This document shows, piece by piece, positions 12,791 through 55,204 of a stretch of 64,000 nucleotides of DNA. This DNA is from Raja brachyura. Lineage: Eukaryota. The notes beneath the pieces were generated by a model. It was not told where the DNA came from. It made no database searches and saw only the letters and a program-made list of their open reading frames with translations. Every line of letters begins with the position of its first letter. Position 1 is the stretch's first letter. The position numbers and the translations under genes were made by a program. The stretch spans positions 39,928,001-39,992,000 of the forward strand of contig OY740791.1 in NCBI GenBank assembly GCA_963514005.1. Reading direction: 5' to 3'.

Positions 12791-15700
12791 CTACTTCTCT
12801 AAATACTGTATATATGGAGACCATATCTGTTGAAAAGAATTATACTCGTCCAAAAGGACAAATCTGATTCTTTCCAACTGCAACGTCTCCAACATCTCTG
12901 ATGCCCACATTTTAATTGTTGGGGATAATGTTCCCTTCCAAAATTTCAATATTATTTTTTTCCCTAATATCAAACAATAATCAAGGAAATTTCTTTGATC
13001 TAGTGTAAATATCAAATTAGCCTCTGGAATTCCCAGTATTATTAGCTTTGGGTCGGGTTCTAATTTAACCTTAAGAACTTCAGAAATAACTTTAAAAATT
13101 TCTGTCCAATAATAATTCAATTTAGGACATGTAACAAAACTGTGTGTTAAATTTGCTTCTAAATTCTTACATTTATCACAAATAGAGGAGAGATTAGGAA
13201 ATATACTATTTAATTTGGCTTTTGAATAATGTAATCTGTATAATACTTTAAATTGTATTAATATATGTCTAGCATTTAACGAGCACCGGTGTATTCGTTG
13301 TAGACTTTCTTCCCAATTTTCTTTGGTTATAGGTGATCCAATTTCATTTTCCCATGCTTGACGATATGTTTCAGTTATTGGATTCTCCTTATCCATAATG
13401 ATGTTATATATATAAGCTATTAATTTTTCTGTGGTTGGATGCCAGTTAAACGATTCATCTAATAATCCTGGTTCCTTATTTTTTAAATCCTGTGTATTAG
13501 ATTTAATATAATCTCTAATTTGGAAATACCTAAACAAATGCTGTGAAGACAATCCGTAGATATCTTGTAATTCCTGAAATGAAAGAAATTTTCCATTTCT
13601 ATAGAGGTGCTCTACCCTTGTAATTCCTAAATTATCCCAATGTCTGAACCCTCCATCCAATGTGGAGGGCTTAAATAATGGGTTATTCATAATTGGTAAT
13701 CTAAATGAAAGGTTGTCTAAATGTAAAGTCTTGACTATTTGTTTCCAAATACGTCTATTATTATAAATGATTGGATTGTCCCTATAAATTTTTTTTTGAA
13801 CTTCCTTTGGGGCAAAAATAATTGAATCTACGTTGAAAGGCAAACAATCTTCCTTTTCTATCTTTAGCCACGTTGGTTCCAGGTCCGTATTTACCCACCA
13901 AAAATTCATATTCTTAATCTGTACTGCCCAGAAGTAGTATAGAAAATTTGGAAGTGCTAATCCTCCGTTTATCTTTGACTTACATAAATGTTTTTTACTT
14001 ATTCTATGATTTTTATAATCCCAGATAAAACTATTAACAATATTATCAATTTTTTTAAAAAAGGTTTTCGGAAGGAAAAAAGGGATAGCTTGAAACAGAT
14101 ATAATAATTGTGGTAGAAAAACCATCTTTATAGCATTTATTCTACCAATCAAAGATATAGGCAGTGTTTTCCAATATAAAATATTTTTTTTAAGTTTATC
14201 TAATAATTGAGGATAATTCGATCTAATTAATGAGTTATGAGATTTAGATACATTAATTCCTAAATATTTAATTTTGTCAGTAACTATTGATAATGGATAT
14301 TGTTGTAATATGTTTAAATTTATATTAGTTATTGGCATAATATCACTTTTATTCCAATTAATCCTATATCCAGAAAATGTACTAAATTTATTTATAACAT
14401 CAAACAACATTGGAATACTAATTTCAGGTTTTGTGATGTAAATCAAAACATCATCTGCATATAAGGATATTTTATTAGTTGTTCTGTCAGTATTATAACC
14501 GTATATTTCAGGTTCTGACCTAATTCTTTCCGCCAAAGGCTCTATCGCCAAGGCAAATAATAAAGGCGATAACGGACATCCTTGTCTACATCCCCTAAAG
14601 AGTTTAAATTTAACTGATAGTATTTGATTAGTTAGAATTCTTGCAGTAGGATCTGAGTATAGGATTCTTACCCATTTACAAAATTGATCCCCCAATTGAA
14701 ACTTTTCCATTATATTAAATAGATATAACCATTCCACCTGGTCAAATGCTTTTTCTGCGTCTAACGATATGACTGCTAATTCCGTATCTCGTATTCTTTT
14801 AGAATATATAATATTAAACAGGCGTCTTAAATTATGAGATGAATAGCGTTTTGGAATAAAACCTGTTTGATCATAATGTATTAATTTAGAGATCACCAAA
14901 CTTAGTCTCCTAGATAAAACTTTAGCTAATATTTTTTGGTCTGTATTTAGAAGGGCAATCGCTCTATATGAACCAGGATCTTCCAGATCTTTATCTACCT
15001 TAGGTATAAGTGTAATTGTGGATTCATTTAAAGAGTCTGGTAATTTTCCTTGTTCATATGCATGTCTATACACTGTATGTAGTCTTGGAGAGATCAGATC
15101 TTGAAATTTTTAATAAAATTCTGCACTCAGGCCGTCAGGTCCCGCAGCTTTTCCATTCTTTAATGAACCAATTGATTCTGCGATATCTTTCACTGATATT
15201 TCAGCATTTAACAAATGTCTCCCTTCCTGATCTAAACTCTTAATTTGACATTCTTGTAGAAATGTTTCCATTCCATCTGTTTGTCCTGTTAATTTTGATG
15301 AGTAAAGATTTTGGTAATATTGTAAAAATCTATCATTAATATCTTTTGGTATGGTCAGTATATTTCCTTGCATTGATCTGATTCCATGTATCGTTTTTTC
15401 ATCGTCTAATTTTCTTAATTGTCGTGCTAGCAATTTATGCGGTTTATCTCCAAATTCAAAATGCACTTGTTTGGTTTGTTGATAAAGTTTGATGACTTGA
15501 TTAGAGTATATTTCATTTAGTCTATACTTTGCTATTGCAATTTTATTACTTAACTCCTTAGAAGGGTGTTTTATATTCTCATTGTCTAGTTGTTTTATCT
15601 CCATTTCTAACTTCTGTTCCCTCTTTCGGTTTTCTTTATTAAAATATGCTTGTGCCGATATTATTGCACCACGCATGAATGCCTTAAATGTATCCCAAAG

Positions 15701-16579
15701 TAACAATGGTGAAATTTCAGGTGTGTCGTTTGTCTCAAAGAATAATTTAATCTGTTCTGTCACATGATTACAACAATCCGTGTCCTTCAGTATCTGAGGA
15801 TTAAATCTCCAAGTCATAGTTTTATTAGATATATCTTTTAGTTTTATCTTAAATGTTAATGGTGCATGATCTGAAATAATAATATTGTGATATTTTGCAT
15901 TGTACGCATAGGGAAGCAGTTTTGAGTCTATTAAAAAGTAATCTATCCTCGAGTAGGTTCCGAATACGGGCGAGAAAAAAGAATATTCTCGTCCGGATGG
16001 GTTCTCTAATCTCCAAATATCCTTAACGTTAGTTGAGTTAATGAAAGAATTTATAAGTTTACTTGAATTAGAAATAGCTTTCCTTTTTGTTGAGGATCTG
16101 TCTAAGTAGTTATCCAAAGTGCAATTTAAATCGCCCCCAATTATTAAATTATGTTGAGTGGATATAGGAATATTATTGAATATTTTCTTGAAAAATAATG
16201 GGTTATCGAAATTAGGAGCATATATATTCATAAGAATTACTTTTTTTGAGTATAATTCCCCTGTAATTATTACATATCTGCCCTCTTTATCTTCTATTAT
16301 AGAACTTTGTTTAAAAGGTATACCTTTACGAATAATTATTGCAACTCCCCTAGATTTATGTATAAATGAAGAATGATATACCTTTGAAATCCATTTAGCT
16401 GTTAATCTATATTGATCATCTCTTTTGAGATGCGTCTCTTGGAGGAAAATAACGTCTGATTTCAATCTATTCAGCTGCGCTAACACCTTACCCCTTTTAA
16501 TTGGTTCATTAATTCCCTTAACATTCCAACTACAGAAAGTGATTCCATCATCCCCAGTCTTCAAATTCATATCTTGCAT
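12791..16579 (-). pseudogene. L1 ORF2p (APE endonuclease-RT-CCHC), about 1262 codons with one in-frame TAA at 15110-15112
   Basis: WNVKG, LQETH, GGDLN, SRIDY and SDH (EN); QGCPLSP and YADD (RT); CDKC...H...C. Both ORF pieces are in the same frame. Confidence 0.93.
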
Positions 16580-17192
16580 TTTAGTATTAGGGTGGTTTTT
16601 TTTGGAGTACCCCTCTCGGCCCCTCCAGCTCAACAAGGCACCCAAACGCCAATCCGACGAAAATTACCAATCTCAATAATCCATATCCATGTCTATCTAA
16701 AATAACTATACGGTATTGTTCATAATTACATTCATATAATATATAACATAAATTCAAATACTTAATATATAAAAAAAAATAGAAAATATAAGTGAAAAAA
16801 GAAAAAAGAGTGTTAAAAGGGTGCCCAAAGAAAAAAAAGACTACACTGATAGATTGTGTAGTGTGTGTTAGTGAACGCCACACTAACGTGGCGATTAATC
16901 TAATGACTTCCGTGTTTAAAAAAGATGTTAAATATTCCAGCTCCCAACTAGAATACTGTGTATATTGGGGTGGGGTACTAACTTTAAGGGTTTAGTAATT
17001 ATTTATATTATTCATGAAACTATTTATTAATTACTATTCTATTGTAATTAGTATTATAATAAATAATACTATGTTAGGGGAATTATTGAAATTCTACAAA
17101 TTGATACCAAACCACTACTACATTCCCATTATTTTCCCTCTTTCTCAATGAATAATTCATAACCGCAGGTTAATGATAAAAGTCCAAAATGT

Positions 17193-18326
17193 TCAGTCGT
17201 CGTCTTCTTCCTCCCGTGATTCATCGTCTGTTTCCTCCTCTTCTGCCTTCTTCTGTATGCCTTGAGCGAACTTCAATGCGTCAGTATGCTTAACGAAGCG
17301 GTGTTCCTCGTTGTCATAGGTCACTCTCAGTGTTGCTGGGTACATCAAGCCATATCTGAGATCCACTGTATTCTTTAAATTCCGTAGGATGCCTCTTGTT
17401 TCAGTGAATAAGGATCTTCTCTTAGCAACATTCGCTGGGTAATCTCTGAAGATACTAATGTTATTTCCTTCGTATTTCAAATTTCTCTTTCTCATTATTA
17501 TCTTCATCATATCTTCAAAGACGTGATCATACACCACCTTTACAATCATTTGTCTGGGTGGTGCACCTCTCCCAAGGACCCGTCTTAAAGCCCTGTGGGC
17601 ACGGCCCAACAGTGGTTCTTCATCCAATTCCAAAATGTCTTTTAGGAGTTTTGCAACAAATTTTCGTGGATCTTGATTTCCTTCACAACCTTCGGTCAAT
17701 CCTACAATTCGCAAATTCTTACGTCTTTGTCGGCCCTCCAAATCAATACATTTCTCATTTATTTTGCGAAGTAGTTCTGAGAGGCGTTTATTCTCGGCAA
17801 GTAACTTCTCAGTTTCCTTGGCACTTTTTACAGCAAAATCAGCCAAATCTTTAAGTGTATCATTGTGTTGGTCCATTGTAATGGTAATAGGATCTATCTT
17901 ATCATTCAGCATTTGTTCCAACCCAGCAACCTTGGCGTTTATCTCAGAGAATCGGTTTTGAAATTCAGCCTCCGTCTTACTTTTCCATTCGCTCATCATA
18001 ATCTTTACCGTCTCGGTAACTTCTTTTGTTAATTCCACTTTAATTCTCTCCTGAGACACCAGAATCTCCTCTTTTAGATTTTTTATTTCATCTTTATATT
18101 CTTTCTTCATGTCTTTAAATTCATCTTTATATTCCTTCTTCAGATCTTTTATTTCTTTCACCAGTTTCTTCATCTCACCTATCATGGAATTTTTAAACTC
18201 TTCCATTTCCACTTTTCTCTGTGAGATCTCTTCCTGGGAGGCAGTCAGACTCGAGCCCGAGGCTTTGGTGGTGCCAGCCTCTCTTCTTAGGCCCGTTTTC
18301 TTCGGGGGAGGGGAGGAGTGCTGCAT
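17193..18326 (-). CDS. L1 ORF1p (coiled coil plus RRM/CTD), 377 aa, open
   Basis: Heptad-rich N-terminus; LEGRQRRKNLRIVGLTEG, RAHR, ISIFRDY and YPATLRV motifs. Confidence 0.93.
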   Translation of the reverse strand: MQHSSPPPKKTGLRREAGTTKASGSSLTASQEEISQRKVEMEEFKNSMIGEMKKLVKEIKDLKKEYKDEFKDMKKEYKDEIKNLKEEILVSQERIKVELTKEVTETVKIMMSEWKSKTEAEFQNRFSEINAKVAGLEQMLNDKIDPITITMDQHNDTLKDLADFAVKSAKETEKLLAENKRLSELLRKINEKCIDLEGRQRRKNLRIVGLTEGCEGNQDPRKFVAKLLKDILELDEEPLLGRAHRALRRVLGRGAPPRQMIVKVVYDHVFEDMMKIIMRKRNLKYEGNNISIFRDYPANVAKRRSLFTETRGILRNLKNTVDLRYGLMYPATLRVTYDNEEHRFVKHTDALKFAQGIQKKAEEEETDDESREEEDDD

Positions 18327-19851
18327 TTTAAATTTCTTACCGAAGTCGCGCGCCTGATGACGTCACGCAGCCTTCAATCGCACCGGAGCCGTTTTTAATC
18401 GATCTCCTGCGGTAAGTAGCGTTAGCACCCTCCTTTAGCCCCGTTTTTTTTACAGATTTTTACGGAGCTGATCTGGCGCTGTTCTCCCCTAGAACATGGC
18501 GCCACCGAAAGTTATGGGCTTTTAACTGTTCCAGATCACAGCTTTTGAGTTAAGTCAATTGAAAGGCAATGGGGAACAAGATGCTAATTTCCGAGTATGA
18601 AAATGGCCATAACTTTCTTAATACTGAAGATATGAAAGTGAATTAGGTGTCAAATAAAACTTCTTTTTATGCTTTATCTGATGGGATAAATTGCAGACTT
18701 GATTTTTAAAATCTCAAAATGTTGTAACATTGCTACTTTGATAAGGTGCCATGTGGGCAGCTGCGAAGGTAGATGAGGGGATTGAAGGCTTTGTGGCCAA
18801 GTTTGCAGATTATACGAAAATAGGTGGAGGGGCAGGTAGTATAGGGAAAGCAGGGACTGCAGAAGGACTTGGGCAGGTTGGGAGAGTGGGCAGAGAAGTG
18901 GCAGAAGGAATATAGTGAAGCAAAGTGTGGAGTCATGCATTTTGGTAGTAAGACTATTTTCTAAATAGGGAAATAATCTAGAAATCGAAGGTGTAAAGGT
19001 AAGGGAGTGCTGGTGCAGGATTCCCAAAAAGTTATTTGCAAGTCAAATCAATAGTAAGGAAGGCAAATGCAATGCTAGCATTTGTTTCAAGAGGGCTAGA
19101 ATACAAACACCCAGATATAATGCTGAGGCTCTATAAGGCGCTGGTCAGGCTGAATTTGGAGTATTGTGAGCAACTTTGGGTACCATATCTGATGAAGGAT
19201 GTGCTGTCTCTGGCGAGGGTCCAGATGAGTTTTACAAGAATTAGCCCAGGAATGAGTGGATTAACATATGATGAGCGTTTGATGGCACTGGGCCTATACT
19301 CACTGGAGTTTAGAAGGATGAGGGGGGGGGGGACCTCATTGAAACTTACCAAATAATGAAAGGCCTGGATGGATTCAATGTGGAGATGATGCTAGTCTAG
19401 GATCAGAGGCCGTAGCCTCGGACTAAAAGGTCATACCTTTAGAAAGAAAATGAGCTGGAATTTCCTGATTCGGGTGGTGAATCTGTGCAATTCATTGCCA
19501 CAGATGGCTGTGGGGGCCAAATCAATGGATATTTTTAAGGCGGAGATTGACAGATTCTTGATTAGAATGGGTCTAGGGTCATGGGGAGAAGGTAGGCGAA
19601 TGGGGTTGAGTGGGAAAGATAAATCACCCATGATTGAATGGCAGAGTAGACTTGATGGGCTGAATGGCCTAATTTTGCTCCTATAACTTATGAACAGTAT
19701 TGCTCTCTGAACAGAAATGAAGCTGACTTGGGCTGACACTCTCCAGGGTATAAATAAATGACTAATGGCATCACTGGGCTTAGTAGGGTGGATAAGGGGT
19801 GATATTTCCATGAGCAAAGCAAACTGATTGCCAGAGCAGCTAAACGCTTAC

Positions 19852-24975: not shown

Positions 24976-25871
24976 GTTCCCGGTTGGGGAGTCCAGAACC
25001 AGGGGTCACAGTTTAAGATTAAGGGGTAGGTCATTTAGGACTGAGATGAGGAAAAACTTTTTCACCCAGAGTTGTGAATCTGTGAATTCTCTGCCACAGA
25101 AGGCAGTGGAGGCCAATTCATTGGATGTTTTCAAGAGGTAGATTTAGCTCCTGGGGCTAAGTAAATCAAGGGATCTGGGGGAAAAGCCAAAATGGGGTAC
25201 TGATTTTGGATGATCAGCCATGATCATATTGAATGGCGGTGCTGGCTCGAAGGGCCAAATGGCCTACTCCTGCACCTATTTTCTATGTTGCTATGTTAGA
25301 TATGCAAGAGCGTACATTAAAGAAAAAGATGATGAGACCAAACTCTTTGGCTTTGGAATAAGGCTGACGGCTAAGCCAAGCGAAGTTGTTAATATGAGAC
25401 GTTTTGTTAGATAGGGTGCATAATTAGAAGCCATCAATTTGGACAGCTAACAAAAACAAAAAAAATCCAGCAGCAAATTCAGCAAAAAATGTAGAACTTG
25501 CTACTGCGGTGAGTGGTTGAAATAAATAAAGATGTATTTATGGGGAAAACACGCAAACATTTAAGGTGAACGGGAATAGATATTTATACCAACAATAGAT
25601 CGTTAAAAAACTGGGAAAGCCTCAAGTGGAGCATAAATGCCAGCATGGACTGGTTGCCACAGCTGGGGGTTTTCTCTGCCGAAAAATACAGCATGTTCTT
25701 TCCCACAATATCTGAGGCAATATCTGAGGCACCCTTACATAAAATACAGGACTCCGCTGTCTTTTGCATCGTGTACATTGATCATGGAGCTTGATGTTTG
25801 AATGTAGCAACGAGTAATCTAGAAACAGCATTTATGAGACAGAAACGTGTAATATTGAGGTTCCTGCTTAC

Positions 25872-26219
25872 CCTCCAAAACCAGGAGATTCAAATTCACT
25901 TTCACATCATTAAACGGTCCAGGGATCTCCACACGGCAGCAATACCAGCCGCCGTCTTCTTTCCGGGGCTGCTTTATCGTGAGCGACACGTCTCCTTCCT
26001 CAATGTTCCCACCAAGCTGATATTTCTCGGATCCTGCTGAAGTTACTGTTTCTCCGTTTGTTTTAATCAGTTCATCTCCACAGCCAAAGATAGGGCACTC
26101 TCCCCGACCCCAGCACATCTCAGTTTCACCATACTGTCGGACAGAGTAGTGGCACGGCAGAGTGATCGCCTGTCCCGGGTATCCTCGCACTGGTGATCCG
26201 GTGACAAGGGCCACTCGAC
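25872..26219 (-). CDS. TIM/HAVCR-family (TIM-1/TIM-4-like) IgV exon, copy B
   Basis: ITLPCHYS, MCWGRGECPIFGC, GDVSLTI and DGGWYCCRVEIPGPFND give the six-Cys TIM IgV. Acceptor tttcag, donor G|gtaagc, 348 nt, phase 1-1. Confidence 0.93.
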
Positions 26220-26529
26220 CTGAAACAGTCCGGGAAAAGACAGTTATAGCCGGCGCTGAGTGATGAGATGGGAAGTGGCCACAGTGTGACAACCCGTCCC
26301 AGCGCTGAGAAAATGAGCCCGTTACCGCTGGCAGCAATTGGGAATATTGTGAAAGGGTTTCTATTTATCGGGATGTGCGTATTGCAGGCAGATCCAGTAT
26401 TTACCCCCCAGCCCCATTTTATCCCAGGGTAAGTGGTGGCGAGCGGCCGTCTCCAATCGCTGCATTTCTGTAGCAGCTTTGACACAACCGGTCGGCTTGT
26501 GAAGCAATTTCAGAGACGGACACGGGGAT

Positions 26530-48275: not shown

Positions 48276-48379
48276 AGTGTGATGTACTTCTAACGGCAGC
48301 TGAGGAAGCGCAATCTGCCACAGGTAATGATGGTCCAATTCTACACGGCCATCGTAGAGTCTGTTCTCACCTTCCCCAT

Positions 48380-48864
48380 TGTGAGAAAAGAGGTTAACAG
48401 ACATGGTTGATTTAAACTAGGAATAGAAAAAATGTAGCTTAGAAAGAAATAAGGTTTCAACAAAGCCAGACTGTTAGTGGGATAGAAAGTCACGACAGAT
48501 AGAGAGAACTTTGAGATAGAAAGTAACGACAGATAGAACAGAGCACAGAGAGAACTTTGAGATAAAAAGTAGCAGATAGAAACTTCAGTATAAGCCTTTG
48601 ACGTCAGGAGATGTTCCGAGGCGTTCCTGGACTTTCTCGTGGGAATGTGGGCTTTATGTTATAATTAAAAAGAGGCAAAATGGTGAGAAAAGAGGGTGTG
48701 GCTATAATGTAATGAAATGTATAAAGATAGAATACATCCCGACCCTCGGTGTGCCTCTAGGGGAGAGGAAAGGAGAGGCACCTATTCTGCAGAATATTAT
48801 CTTAATAAAAGCTTCTTTGCTGACTTTGTCTCAAACAGCATTTGTGATTTTTTAATCTCTCACA
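48380..48864 (+). repeat. 5' LTR
   Basis: TGTGAGA...TCTCACA; TATAAA 48720-48725; AATAAA 48804-48809; about 3 differences from the 3' LTR. Confidence 0.97.
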
Positions 48865-48867
48865 ATT

Positions 48868-48887
48868 TGGGAGCTCGGTTCCGGTAT
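48868..48887 (+). promoter_or_regulatory. Primer-binding site, degenerate tRNA-Pro type
   Basis: TGGGAGCTCGGTTCCGGTAT versus the canonical TGGGGGCTCGTCCGGGAT, 3 nt after the LTR. Confidence 0.7.
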
Positions 48888-49165
48888 TTAATTACTCCAA
48901 GCCAGCTGACGGGGGTACACGGACGAAGAGAAGGTGCACCCCGCTGAGTTCAGCGGTCTCAGACTCCTTGCTTACCGTCAGGAGGTTTGAGCCAGTGATG
49001 CCCGGACCAAAGAGAGACTCAGCAAAGAAGTGAAGGTGGTTGGAGATTGGTTGGAAATTGCAAAAATCGAGTAATTCTGTGCACAGACCCCGGTAAGAAA
49101 CTTTGACTATTATAGTATTACCTGGGCGATTTGATAAAAGATCGGAGAGGATTCCGATAAAGAGA

Positions 49166-49750
49166 ATGGGAAATGTAAGTGAAAAACCCATCCCAGCATT
49201 CTGCCCAATAGTCCGTTGGGGGCGAATGCTGAACCACTGGGGGGCAAGAAATACCCAGGGGTCGGAGAAGACAATAATGATAAGGTATTGTTATTTTGAA
49301 TGGCCAAAACACCCGATAAAGGAACTTCGGTCTGGTGGCCAGAGGATGAGTCAGATGAGGATTGGGTACAACAGGCATTGAATGAATATGTGAAAAATAA
49401 ACCCAATCCAATAATAGGAGAGATCAAGTATGCCGCAGTATGGGAAGCGGGATAAAATTATTAAAGGAGAGAGAGGCAGTTTAACTCCTTGTGGATACCA
49501 CCCTGAGAGGTCAGGGTTCTGTCGGACGGGAATAGTCCGATAAGACAATGGATAACCGGAACGGGAAAAGTAAGAGTCCGGGGGGAAAAGAAAAAGGCTC
49601 AAAGGTGAAGAGCCGCACATTCTGCCTGATAGTCCGTTGGGGCGAATGTGGCAATCTTGGGGAGAAGGAAGCCCCGGGGGTAAAGATAAGGAGACTATGA
49701 TTAAGTTCTGTTATTTTGATTAACCAAAGGAACCAATAATGAGGATTGGG
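49166..49750 (+). pseudogene. gag: gag matrix-like module, two tandem copies (49166-49445 and 49548-49750), frameshifted
   Basis: MGNVSE..NSPLGRMLNHW..MIRYCYFEWPKHPI..WWPEDESDEDWVQQALNEYV..EIKYAAVW and PDSPLGRMWQSW..ETMIKFCYFD*PKEPI, resembling HERV-I-type MA. Confidence 0.8.
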
Positions 49751-50114
49751 CACTTTGGATGCTGTACAGAATATTTAGAGTATCCCTCAAACATTGCAAA
49801 AATCTAAGGAAAATCACAGTGCCAAATGTTTTGAGTATGAAAAGTTAAAAAAGGAAGGAGCAACACGGAAAGAAATAGAAAAGACAACTGTCAAATCTAA
49901 AAAAAAGCTACAGAAATCTATAAATTATATGTGGAAAAACAGATTTTGAACAAAAATTGACAGAAACCTCAAAGAAATTTCAGGAAATTGAAGAAGCTCA
50001 TCTTAAGCACTTGAAAGAAATATTATTGTTGTGAGTTGTTTCACAAAATCTATAGAAGGAACTCATATACAGATTGGTCAGGTACATGAGGAGTTAGTGC
50101 AAAATATTGTAGAA
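49749..50114 (+). pseudogene. FCHO2: Captured intronless fragment of the FCHO2 F-BAR domain inside the provirus
   Basis: [89 protein letters not shown]/..THIQIGQVHEEL is colinear with remembered vertebrate FCHO2. Confidence 0.88.
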
Positions 50115-51109
50115 TAGCAGAAAGTAGAATTGCATTAAGAATAATGTAATATAGTGACTACGAGGACAGAGGAGGTGTAAGGACTGCGTTTCTTGACTGT
50201 GGAGATAAAATTGCTACATTCTCTCTGCTGAGAGATCGACAAAATGAGTTTATTTGTTTGGAGATTAATGGGAGTGGGGTGTGGTCAGATGTTGAGTGAC
50301 TAGGATTTTGAATGGTTGTGATCTTAGTGGGGTGTGGTTAGAATTTGAGTGACGGTGAGTCTGACTAATCACGATCTGAATCACTATCCAATCACAGCGC
50401 TCAGGAACCTGATTGATGGGGGATTAGACCATCCTACTTTAACTTAAAAGGGGAGATAAGAATTATATAAATGTTAATTTTGAAACTTGAATCTGTGTAG
50501 AAAATTGCATAATTTCTTTGAAGTAAGAATGGAACGAATGTGATTTGTGTGTACAAACCGGTTTTGAATGAATGAGAAAGTTCATATATGTGATCTTTTG
50601 TTTGTTGTAGGCCACATGCTGTAAGGGTGTGTGTGTGTGTTCCTTTAAGAAATTGTAAGCAATGAGGAAGGTTACGAACAGCTGTAAGGTAACGAACAAC
50701 GCTTTGTATCATCGCAGCTTAAAAGGGGAAAGTTGGAAAATGAAGGTTGCTTGGTTTTGCTTATGTTTCTATAGATTTCTTTTCAGTAAAGTTAATTTGG
50801 AAAATTGTTACTAGTACCAGGGACTGGAAATTTCAAAATAGTGGTGAGAATGGATTGAAAAAAAAAATTAAGCAGTTTAGAGAGGAAAGGAGAGGCAGTG
50901 AGGAGGTAACAGAAGGAGGAAACGACAGGTGTGAACGTAATAAATCAGGAGGAGTCAGTGGAAGATTTTAAAAGAAAAGTGAATACATTTGCAAAGGAGG
51001 GTAAACTATCTAAGAAGTAAGAAATTGAGTTTAGAATGAGAAAAAAGGCATATCAGAAAGGATTAAAGTGGGAAACAAAGGGATAAATTGATGAGACTGC
51101 TTTAAAAAG

Positions 51110-52240
51110 ATAAGAGCAGCCACAGAACAGATGGTAGAAATGAAGTCACTAATACCTTTAAGGGGACAAGAGGAAAAGATACCTAACTTTAGTGAGAAAG
51201 AGCAGGAACACATGCGAGAAATGGGGGCTCAGCGTACTTCAAATGGGAAATGGTGGACACCGGATGGAAAGCAGCTATTGAACAAAGAAATAATGAGAGA
51301 ATTATTAGGGAGGTTGCATGGACAAAGCCATTGGGGAACACAAGCCCTCTGTGACACCCTCCTCAGAACCTACGCTTGCCGTGGAATGTATACAATGGCC
51401 GGACAAGTCATAGGGGGCTGTGTAATATGTCAGCGAATTAACAAAAGAATCATGAGAGCAGTTCCAGGAGGAGGACAACCATTAGTAGTTAGGCCCTTCC
51501 AGAGAATACAGATAAATTTCACCGAGCTGCCCCAGGTAAAAACCTGGAAGTACCTGTTAGTGATAGTGGACCATTTCACCAGGTGGGTAGAGGCATTCCC
51601 CACGGCAACTGCCACCTCACAGGCGGTAGCCAAGATATTACTAGAACAAATTATACCCAGATATGGGATTGTGGAAACAATAGACTCAGATAGAGGGACT
51701 CATTTTGCCTCCAAAACACATAAAATGATATGTGAAGCACTAGGAATAGAATGGAAATTGCATACACCATGGCATTCCCAGAGCTCAGGAAAGGTGGAAA
51801 GAATGAATAGCACCTTGAAGACCCAAATCACCAAGTTGATAGAGGAAACAAGACTCCCCTGGACTAAGTGCCTCCCGATAGCCCTGTTAAGAATCCGAAC
51901 GGCACCTCGAAAAGACATAGGGATATCACCATATGAGATGTTATTTGGGCTCCCATACTTAGGGAAGATTGAAGGAGTTCCAACAATGCGAGGGCAGTGA
52001 TGTATTCTTAAGGAACTATTTACTGGCAGTGTCCCAATCTCTTGCAGAACTAAAAATTAAAGGATTGCTGGCCCAGAGCCCACCACAGGACTTCCCAATT
52101 CACTCAGTCAAGGCTGGAGACTGCGTATAAATAAAAAACGTGGAAAGAAGAAAAGCTGCAACCTGGTGTTACTAATCACCGAGACAGCAGTACGAACAAG
52201 AGAGAAAAGATGGACACACGCAAGGGTCCTGTGGAGGCCC
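51110..52240 (+). pseudogene. pol: Retroviral integrase (pol 3' end), frameshifted after about 51995
   Basis: LHGQSHWG...CVICQ zinc finger; IQINFTELP (first catalytic D replaced by N), IDSDRGTHF, SSGKVERMN; C-terminal VLLITETAVRT. Confidence 0.93.
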
Positions 52241-52322: not shown

Positions 52323-54274
52323 ATGAAGATTTTATGTTGGTGGGTCGTGTGTTGGGAAATCACCCAACTTGTAAGTAATGTAACATGCATAAAAATCACA
52401 ATACCACAGAATAGAAGGTTCACCACCATTCCATTTGATGTATGTAAAGGAAAATGATGGTGCGGCTATAGAATGTATGTATGCACCCGTCCCTGTAAAG
52501 ATTGGCACGTGGTGTTCACTTCATCAAAATATGGGTGGCATCGGACCACCTATCAAACTGATAGGTGGAAAGTGTATCAAAACCCAAACGAGAAATTACC
52601 AGGACGCGTATATGTGAGCATACAGAGTGTTCAAATGCAGGAAAGTGGTAGATATTGGATATGTGCAGATAGAACATGGAAGGATGCATGTCTGAAGTTT
52701 GAGATAGAAGTGAAGCGGGATGGAGAGATGGTAAGATACGAGGAGAAGGGAGAGGTGGTCAAGATAGATGACAGTCAGAATAGGGATCCCGGGGCAACAC
52801 CAGCACCACCAGCAGTCAGCAATGTAAATAGGGAAAATGAGCCTAAGGATCTGAAGATAATGATAGTAGCAGGAGAAACAGGATTAAGGCAGTTATATGA
52901 GGGGGAAAAGGAGCCAACACCTGGCTAGCCTGGATGATGTACACAGCCAGAAGTATGCAACAAACCAATTGTTATGCCTGCGCCGGAGCCAGGCCTCAGC
53001 TGGTCCCAGTACCATTTCCCCTGAATTGGGATAGAACACCTGGGGCTATGTCATGTATACTACAGCTATTCACGAATCCCCTCTTACCAGAGAATGCAAT
53101 ATGCCAGAGTTATCATTACCTATTTCCGACCAGCAACAACAATACGAAGGGCCGAAGGGAAGACCCTAGACCTCCTCCATTGACCATTCCTCTTGGGGAG
53201 GAGGGATTTGAGTGCTATACAAGATATAACCCAGAGGGACAGGATATGGGGAAGGTGCTCAACTGCAATCAGACGTATAACATAACGGCTGAGGAACAGG
53301 GGCCACTGTTCAAAAGCTCCTGGCTGAGAAAGCAGATAATCAGTAGAGCTGATGTCTGGTGGTGGTGCGGGGAGAATACCCTGTGACCCCGGTTACCAGG
53401 GTCATGGACGGGAACCTGTACCCTCATACAACTGATGATGCCCTTTACCATAGCAGTAGAACATGCTGTAGAACTCAAGGAAGGAAACCAACGACAAAAG
53501 AGAAAGGTGAAGAGATCATTCGACACACACATCTATATAGATGCGATAGGTGTGCCAAGAGGGGTACCCGCTGAATTCAAAGCCAGAAACCAGATAGCTG
53601 CAGGCTTTGAGTCCATGCTCTTCTGGTGGTCCACAATTAATAAAAATGTGGACTTGATCAACTACTTATACTACAATCAACAACGCTTTATAAATTACAC
53701 TCGAGATGCAGTTGAAGGATTAGCGGAACAACTGACAGCTACCAGCCAAATGACCTGGCAAAATCGCATGGCCTTGGACATGCTACTGGCTGAGAAGGGA
53801 GGGGTATGTGTAATGTTTGGCGAACAATGTTGCACATTCATCCCCAACAACACTGCTCCGGATGGGTCAGTGTCAAGAGCCCTAGCAGGTCTCACCTCTC
53901 TGTCTATCGAATTGGCTGAGAACTCTGGAGTAGACACCTCTTGGACTGGGTTTCTAGAATCCTGGTTTGGGAAATGGAAGCACATCTTTACATCAACGCT
54001 AACATCAGTGGTAGTCATGGTGGGGTTACTGTGTTTGTTTGGATGCTGTATCATTCCCTGCGTACGGGGGTTGGCCCAGCGATTGATAGAAACAGCCCTG
54101 ACAAAGAACAGCGCTGCCACCATAATGGCTTTCAGAACACATTATGACCAACGAGAGGGGGACCAACGAGATGGAGGCGAAGAATTTGTTGATAGCATTA
54201 GAAAAGGAGGATGTAGTGTAAATCAAAAGTTGCGTGGCAAAAAGAAAATGATGGATTGTGAGAAAAGAGGTTAA
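52323..54274 (+). pseudogene. env: env (gamma-type, PABL/PRIMA4-like) with 2 nonsense codons (52455, 53384) and 1 frameshift (about 52900); TM subunit open
   Basis: Signal peptide MKILCWWVVC; CYAC (CXXC); furin RQKRKVKR; YIDAIGVPRGVP; ISD QNRMALDMLLAEKGGVC; CX6CC; TM helix. Splice acceptor tttatatttaccag at 52307 and candidate donor CCG|gtaaga at 49092. Confidence 0.93.
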
Positions 54275-54741
54275 CAGACATGGTTGATTTAAACTAGGAA
54301 TAGAAAAAATGTAGCTTAGAAAGAAATAAGGTTTCAACAAAGCCAGACTGTTAGTGGGATAGAAAGTCACGACAGATAGAGAGAACTTTGAGATAGAAAG
54401 TAACGACAGATAGAACAGAGCACAGAGAGAACTTTGAGATAAAAAGTAGCAGATAGAAACTTCAGTATAAGCCTTTGACATCAGGAGATGTTCCGAGGCG
54501 TTCCTGGACTTTCTCGTGGGAATGTGGGCTTTATGTTATAATTAAAAAGAGGCAAAATGGTGAGAAAAGAGGGTGTGGCTATAATGTAATGAAATGTATA
54601 AAGATAGAATACATCCCGACCCTCGGTGTGCCTCTAGGGGAGAGGAAAGGAGAGGCACCTATTCTGCAGAATATTATCTTAATAAAAGCTTCTTTGCTGA
54701 CTTTGTCTCAAACAGCATTTGTGATTTTTTTATATCTCACA
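54257..54741 (+). repeat. 3' LTR
   Basis: 485 bp, near-identical to 48380-48864. Confidence 0.97.
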
Positions 54742-55204
54742 CCCATCATAGTCTGGTTTGGCTCAGCCACCAAGCACGACACCTGGAGGCTGCAGCGAAT
54801 CGGCCGATCAGCGGAGGTTATTGGCTGTAACCTTCCCTCCATTGAGGAACTATGCACTGCAAGGGCCAGGAAGCGAGCGGGCAAGATCATCTCTGACCCC
54901 TCTCACCCTGGTCACAAACTCTTTGAATCACTTTCCTCTAGAAGACGACGCCGTACTGTCAAAGCTGCCAGCCAGACATAAAAACTGTTTTTATCCATGA
55001 ATAGTTACTCTACTCACCAGCCAAAAATCTGTAGCCTCCCTTTAATCTGGTATTTTGTTGGTTCACATGCTTGATTAATGCTTTATCATGAATGTTTAGT
55101 GTTTTCTGAGTCATTCGTAACCGTCACTGTATGTCATGTTGTTACTTGTGGGCGGAGCACCAAGGAAATTCCTTGTATGTGAATACTTGGCAAATAAATA
55201 ACTT

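Follow-up and report, generated by a model that had tools for sequence, protein, structure and literature searches.

A provirus with a piece of host FCHO2 behind its matrix gene

The window, a stretch of 64,000 nucleotides from the genome of the skate Raja brachyura, contains a provirus of 6.36 kb that holds within it a piece of the host gene FCHO2. All features of the provirus lie on the + strand: a 5-bp target-site duplication (left copy 48375..48379, right copy 54742-54746) encloses a 5' LTR (48380..48864, TG...CA, type A) and a 3' LTR (54257..54741), both of 485 nt and identical at 482 of 485 positions, leaving three differences. The type A LTR has no blastn match to the LTRs of the long-type elements described below. 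Inside the 5' LTR follow a primer-binding-site-like stretch (48868..48885), which we take to be tRNA-Pro-like, and a stop-broken first matrix-like gag start (MA-1, 49147..49453) native to LTR type A, which in the related loci L149 and L154 extends into more gag-like sequence, with the FCHO2 piece absent nearby. Of a second matrix module (MA-2), which is common to the long-type lineage and belongs to the gene hit by the insertion, the 5' half is present (49588..49749) and directly precedes the FCHO2 remnant (49750..50116), which runs out of frame with MA-2 from nt 20 of exon 5 to nt 34 of exon 8. A closed-frame spacer (50117..51094) with no notable Pfam family in the three + frames, whose part at 50456-51132 resembles broken gag-like pieces in the related proviruses L112, L113 and L118, leads to an integrase (51095..51997; H2C2 and rve domains by Pfam, 301 open codons) and to an env (52458..54274) broken by stops and frameshifts, with a TLV_coat domain in its 3' part. 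Protease and reverse transcriptase (RT) were not found in this provirus, which is therefore non-autonomous.

The TLV_coat and rve domains of the window provirus are class I traits. Pfam recognises neither the short FCHO2 pieces nor the matrix pieces; blind as it is to the latter, the matrix identity rests on relatives of the module, and Gag_p30 was found in 3 of 9 matrix relatives scanned. The RT of L159, an insert-free relative, best matches RT/RNase H p80 chains (E 6e-69), presumably of MLV, as against protease-RT chains (E 6e-14), presumably of foamy viruses. The types of Gag, RT and Env thus place the captor among class I (gamma/epsilon-like) endogenous retroviruses (ERVs), the RT evidence consisting of matches to protein chains.

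A sequence-only reading of the same DNA had put an FCHO2 F-BAR piece between the second of two matrix-like modules and integrase, and this is borne out. As that reading predicted, the two longest unbroken frame pieces match the human FCHO2 F-BAR structure 2V0O (residues 123-174, E 5.9e-17; residues 192-218, E 2.4e-7). A protein search returned 41 proteins, every one with FCH/F-BAR Pfam domains; the named ones are all cartilaginous-fish FCHO2, and the best are skate proteins at 88%. When exon junctions are mapped onto the FCHO2 gene of the same genome, the remnant (residues about 120-241) resolves into exons 5-8 with three introns spliced out: nt 20-153 of exon 5 at 49750-49883 (94% identical to the genome's own FCHO2), exon 6 at 49885-49972 (a 16-nt deletion and two extra nucleotides in an A-run), exon 7 at 49975-50081 (an 8-nt insertion) and nt 1-34 of exon 8 at 50082-50116 (a 1-nt insertion). 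The copy had been described as broken, and it is, by one stop in exon 5 and indels in exons 6, 7 and 8. It had also been described as lacking the N-terminal helices, which is true of the window copy but not of longer copies, where exons 2-4 stand behind exon 8.

Copies of the window type are abundant. A DNA search of the genome gave at least 520 first-look candidates, a floor rather than a census, and the 40 that were scored are all 96-100% identical; a matrix-site pattern occurs at 173 or more places, and 8 of 10 fetched adjoin an FCHO2 piece. In the 30 closest copies FCHO2 always starts at nt 20 of exon 5 and extends to nt 34 of exon 8 (in one copy to nt 27), and the subfamily has neither exons 2-4, nor the join of exon 8 to exon 2, nor the 3' half of MA-2. 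Some window-type proviruses stand in tandem at a spacing of about 5.95 kb and others at about 45 kb (G000:C10:4.95-5.29 Mb, C283, C29:21.6-21.8 Mb), through segmental duplication or an assembly effect.

Elsewhere the window contains, on the - strand, a near-complete element at 12791-18362 with open stretches of 389, 517 and 772 codons, which we take to be L1-like, and an exon-like immunoglobulin V domain at 25819-26364, which we assume resembles TIM/HAVCR proteins; a related copy lies near 806-1405, and a segment upstream of the two copies is duplicated (1071-1370 and 26175-26474, 98%).

Permuted exons, the insertion site and the history of the element

The host FCHO2 gene (G000:C3) has exons 2-8 of 92, 75, 142, 153, 105, 99 and 97 nt, 763 nt in total, each single-copy within 200 kb, and the introns flanking the set measure about 39 and 18 kb. 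In the longer viral copies a protein search finds FCHO2 residues 120-264 followed by residues 10-120, and the DNA order is exon 5 (20-153), 6, 7, 8, 2, 3, 4, 5 (1-23), the last base of exon 8 abutting the first base of exon 2. A 71-nt probe spanning this join matches in full at 30 places in the genome; the remaining one of its 31 matches, all of them scored, is host exon 2 by itself. Among 30 long-type loci the join is gap-free with at most one mismatch in 24 nt in 23, carries four mismatches in one and is absent from six; five of the 30 have lost it together with much of exons 5-8. The 3' half of MA-2 occurs at 34 places, and all 30 fetched contain FCHO2. Exon 9 is absent from every viral locus checked, and FCHO2 residues 1-9 (exon 1) and those beyond about 267 have no match in the viral copies. 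There is no poly(A): in 29 of 30 loci matrix sequence follows directly on the 3' junction, and the remaining locus is rearranged. Most long copies share a deletion across exons 2-3, and L057 and L062 retain nearly the whole lap. Starting from nt 20 of exon 5, the insert returns to nt 16-24 of that exon, so that its length differs by no more than 1-3 nt from a single lap of a 763-nt circle. As in circRNA-derived pseudogenes, the non-colinear join falls on true splice sites, only exons of the circle are present and poly(A) is wanting; on sequence grounds this pattern bears the mark of a back-spliced circle, with the opening point in exon 5. Loci L031/L066, considered as a separate intronless F-BAR gene, were rejected as such and are a deletion form of the FCHO2 insert.

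Introns 1 and 8 share 13 inverted-repeat hits (1668 nt) against 4-15 hits (1263-3771 nt) in 12 control intron pairs, and are no richer in complementarity than those controls. Run X4 (three contigs, guessed to be RNA) shows linear exon order only, in contigs that drop rare forms and are uninformative on the circle. According to PMC10838848, the human circFCHO2 hsa_circ_0002490 consists of exons 19-20; it resembles the skate case in marking FCHO2 as a circle-producing locus and differs in its exons, which are 2-8 in the putative skate circle.

The left flank of the insert corresponds to a Gag N-terminus, with 59 relatives, the best-scoring of which match near their own N-terminus, and in matrix relatives the motif that precedes the junction runs on with the residues that here follow FCHO2. 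Locus L159 (G000:C30), a member of the long-type LTR family (86-88%) with neither FCHO2 nor the RRBP1 sequence described below, has the two flanks separated by 5 letters in a single open frame that continues into gag. It is a cousin and not the direct parent (87% and 76% in the two flanks), and at the junction it agrees with the host FCHO2 stretch at 6 of 8 positions only. The insert-free joint also occurs in two contigs of DNA run X15 (organism C), where FCHO2 exons appear at flat depth only and the boundary of exon 8 with exon 2 shows loose ends. In runs X1 and X2 (organisms A and B) the chimera is deeply covered, and one X2 contig spans the back-splice join. The chimera is therefore present in two other organisms and not seen in organism C, which has the insert-free virus, on contigs that show presence and not absence. 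An insert-free joint in a single X2 contig with a 29-nt side, possibly an MA-1 paralogue, was left out of this count. Two pattern searches for the insert-free site with guessed codons gave no matches; a third found 173 places, of which the 100 listed comprise 99 MA-1 sites and one MA-2-type site, L159. A word-index protein search with the MA-2 half gave no match.

In the long type, gag-pol behind the matrix has been replaced by spliced, colinear pieces of RRBP1 (88%) and CCHCR1, the latter with a Pfam HCR domain (E 9e-16) and three host exons in order. Permutation was found in neither piece, and the colinearity of RRBP1 points to a linear mRNA source. The RRBP1 sequence lies directly behind matrix at L104:2511-3334 (G000:C10:54.45 Mb) and at eight more long-type loci; its pieces (residues about 503-708 and 874-950) are 88% identical to skate RRBP1, and 189 codons of its frame are open in L104. 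The spliced 3' part of CCHCR1 with the HCR domain, the third host RNA, lies at L104:3490-3990 (host exons at G000:C1351:60553-64874). Between the two, about 95 nt (L104:3406-3500) are 87% identical to one other place in the host (G000:C40:22412496-22412592) and are possibly a fourth captured RNA; a short tandem repeat of variable copy number marks the RRBP1-CCHCR1 boundary in L104 (3340-3420) and other long copies.

The block of matrix and FCHO2 occurs with LTR type B (L103), with the type of L112 (75% identical to B over 360 nt) and with the unrelated type A of the window. Because type A elements without a nearby block exist (L149, L154), the window element is a recombinant. L103 has LTRs of 504 nt and a 5-bp target duplication. 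Divergence between paired LTRs is 0.6% in the window provirus, a young element, 4.8% in L103 and roughly 2-8% in several others, as would suit a long-lived passenger that was still being copied recently. Identical junctions at dispersed sites, with two or more unrelated LTR types, indicate copying as a non-autonomous element. The FCHO2-bearing loci L112, L113 and L118 retain decayed capsid- and RT-like stretches and what we take to be a third, different matrix motif; they look like mosaics of several class I lineages.

Probable capture of a circular RNA and its alternatives

Analysis of these sequences makes it probable that a skate class I retrovirus took up a circular RNA of FCHO2 exons 2-8, that RT copied one lap of it into the matrix gene, and that the product spread as a passenger. 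The sequence-only reading had proposed capture from mRNA during viral replication. Its timing stands, given that the insert is spliced and has neither poly(A) nor a target duplication of its own, and it gains from the single 5' junction shared by dispersed proviruses and from the existence of an insert-free relative. Its template does not: with the exons in a circularly permuted sequence and an exact join at the back-splice, a linear mRNA is almost certainly the wrong source. We propose instead that the retrovirus co-packaged the 763-nt circle; that RT, during minus-strand synthesis, quit the viral RNA within the matrix gene, where 8 nt resemble exon 5, made a single lap of the circle that took it across the back-splice join, and rejoined the viral RNA almost at its point of departure, with the loss of about 8 viral nt; and that RNase H would have degraded the circle behind RT, so that after one lap the template was exhausted and return was forced. 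The insertion would have destroyed Gag, leaving a dead genome that could still be copied in trans, that also took up pieces of RRBP1 and CCHCR1 mRNA, and from which the matrix-FCHO2 block may have moved by recombination into elements with other LTRs, the trimmed window type becoming the abundant form.

The 3' side of such an insert is the side copied first in minus-strand synthesis. There virus and exon 5 agree at 7 of 8 nt when the chimera flank is compared with the allele of organism C (chance 4e-4 at a given site) and at 6 of 8 when it is compared with today's host allele (chance 4e-3 at a given site), a homology that we liken to the microsimilarity switches of LTR-mediated retrocopies as presented in parts of PMC5131818. 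In these comparisons the 5' (return) junction has a homology of about 1 nt only. On a 763-nt circle, the chance that exit and entry lie no more than 3 nt apart is about 0.9%. Consumption of the template by RNase H could explain why the lap ended and return was forced; a precise return and then, early on, the deletion of a few nucleotides is equally compatible with the data. Passages of PMC6721031 describe tandem (rolling-circle) cDNA made from circles in the laboratory with an RNase H-minus enzyme. The single-lap rule rests on one event, one data point, and it is an even question whether there is a general route by which retroviruses package host circular RNAs and an RNase H-positive RT inserts exactly one lap at short homology.

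A linear RNA with repeated exons, made by trans-splicing or from a segregating tandem duplication of exons 2-8, would contain an identical exact 8-to-2 join, and if RT entered in the second exon 5 and left in the first, the recurrence of the homology one period away would make a capture of period length possible. We regard this donor as unlikely: the host exons are single-copy, the probe finds one host exon 2, and no flanking exon 1 or 9 sequence was taken. Exon-repeat mRNAs are in general much rarer than circles, and this rarity also tells against such a donor, even though trans-splicing is a recognised source of such joins in the passages of PMC8586232 that treat them.

Retroposition of the circle by a LINE enzyme into a resident provirus, with later amplification, is less probable still. 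Elements that we take to be L1-like and CR1-like are plentiful in the window, and a word of 4-5 nt is present at both ends of the insert; yet FCHO2 itself contains that word, and the viral letters that should have survived in the left flank, had a target been duplicated, are missing. Circular RNAs do not carry the poly(A) tail that LINE retroposition needs, and poly(A) is absent here. The junction lies, moreover, at virus-host homology, and two more host RNAs replaced gag-pol in the same lineage, which is the pattern of template switching described in sections of PMC5131818.

The sequence-only reading further envisaged an ancestral MA-F-BAR protein that aided budding or blocked FCHO-dependent endocytosis, and in favour of it the insert lies in sense right behind the membrane-binding matrix half, and L053 and L056 keep 150-155 open codons in the FCHO2 frame. 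Such a protein is nevertheless very improbable. FCHO2 is out of frame with matrix at all 54 readable junctions (from a survey of 64 loci, some of them the same place twice, 10 being unreadable), as the same reading had already noted for the window copy. The matrix frame ends after 35 further codons in the window and after 22-46 in each of the 14 long copies read; the exon 8|2 join shifts the frame as well (763 nt), and with this second shift no permuted F-BAR is possible. Synonymous counts among copies look neutral, the shared substitutions giving no sign of purifying selection. In 30 long-type copies 11 of 45 shared changes are synonymous (neutral expectation 26%), as are 36 of 200 private ones, and there are 16 stops in all; in 30 window-type copies the figures are 6 of 15 shared (p 0.13) and 10 of 42 private. 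The 16-nt deletion and the 8-nt insertion occur in 30/30 window-type copies, so this type was amplified after the frame was lost.

One further count favours a protein: fixed differences between the long copies and the host are mostly synonymous (8/13, p 0.007). At 11 of these 13 sites no difference of X15 (organism C) from L104 is listed (6 firm; 5 near contig ends or uncertain), and the excess appears largely to reflect change on the host side. At the three residues where the host differs from the FCHO2 of Amblyraja and Leucoraja the viral copies have the state of the latter, so that the capture either predates the host changes or came from another skate lineage. The viral copies also look closer to the FCHO2 of organism C, which has no visible chimera, than to that of their own genome (residues 130, 241 and 245), which may reflect rapid change in the host or a transfer from one skate lineage to another. 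Median identity of the insert to the host exons is 96%. With neither an open frame joined to viral genes nor purifying selection, the FCHO2 sequence travels as a passenger and does not count as a gene.

Least probable of all is a permutation produced by an extra RT jump on ordinary linear FCHO2 mRNA, for although RTs generate false back-splice joins (passages of PMC8586232) and recombination is frequent among these elements, the join falls on a splice site on either side, for which the chance under random jumping is about 8e-4, and the outer junctions would also have to meet within 3 nt.

Relation to known systems and significance

The closest counterpart of a captured circle is mouse circRfwd2, with 33 pseudogenes, LTRs enriched nearby, MMERVK10C-int named in figure legends and a mechanism called 'mysterious' (Dong et al. 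2016, PMC4897178). The two cases share a non-colinear join, dozens of copies from one circle, the lack of poly(A) and an association with ERVs. They differ in that the skate insert sits within the matrix gene of proviruses bounded by LTRs and keeps a complete lap, that its two junctions are legible, as is a relative free of the insert, and that the host is a cartilaginous fish. The window copy, which has lost the join, would fall into the low-confidence class of that study, whereas the long copies hold the join. In the passages concerned, the reviews PMC5408686 and PMC12747553 suggest mediation by LTRs or merely restate the class.

LTR-mediated retroposition (Tan et al. 2016, PMC5131818, as far as its consulted sections go) resembles the skate elements in that LTRs enclose spliced pieces of host genes, that one element may hold pieces of several such genes, and that amplification goes on non-autonomously; its short homology at junctions has a likeness at the skate 3' junction (6-7 of 8 nt), against about 1 nt at the 5' junction. 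The Drosophila cases in those sections always replace part of the element, whereas the FCHO2 insert is permuted and removes about 8 viral nt, and the words 'circular' and 'circRNA' have 0 occurrences in that text. The skate elements have both LTRs and the element's own target duplication (window, L103), and were copied further non-autonomously. Crocodilian ERVs with KIT-ligand and nectin3 (passages of PMC4299795) are likewise host mRNA sequence amplified by a retrovirus of a non-mammalian vertebrate; their captures have open frames under purifying selection, in contrast to the out-of-frame, neutral FCHO2 insert. No earlier report of this element, or of an FCHO2/F-BAR capture, was found among the matches listed in the open-access literature. 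In gag-onc transduction, too, host mRNA-derived sequence is carried by a retrovirus. New here is an unusually complete mechanistic record of the probable capture of a circle; the kind is already known from mouse, and the cargo is without function.

The description of circRNA-derived pseudogenes left unexplained how circRNAs return to genomes. Here the points of entry and exit and a full lap survive, together with a relative free of the insert, so that the proposed mechanism can be tested with ordinary RT assays. Two cautions follow for skates and their viruses: back-splice reads of skate FCHO2 may stem from dozens of proviruses, and an F-BAR match next to matrix is no evidence of a viral membrane-bending protein. 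The proposed capture would imply that circles get into retroviral particles in the germ line. If the one-lap route is indeed general, the insert preserves an ancient germ-line back-splice of a cartilaginous fish, single-lap permuted inserts would be a diagnostic signature with which to scan vertebrate ERVs, and circRNA-derived pseudogenes, those of mouse circRfwd2 in MMERVK10C among them, would gain the mechanism they have lacked.
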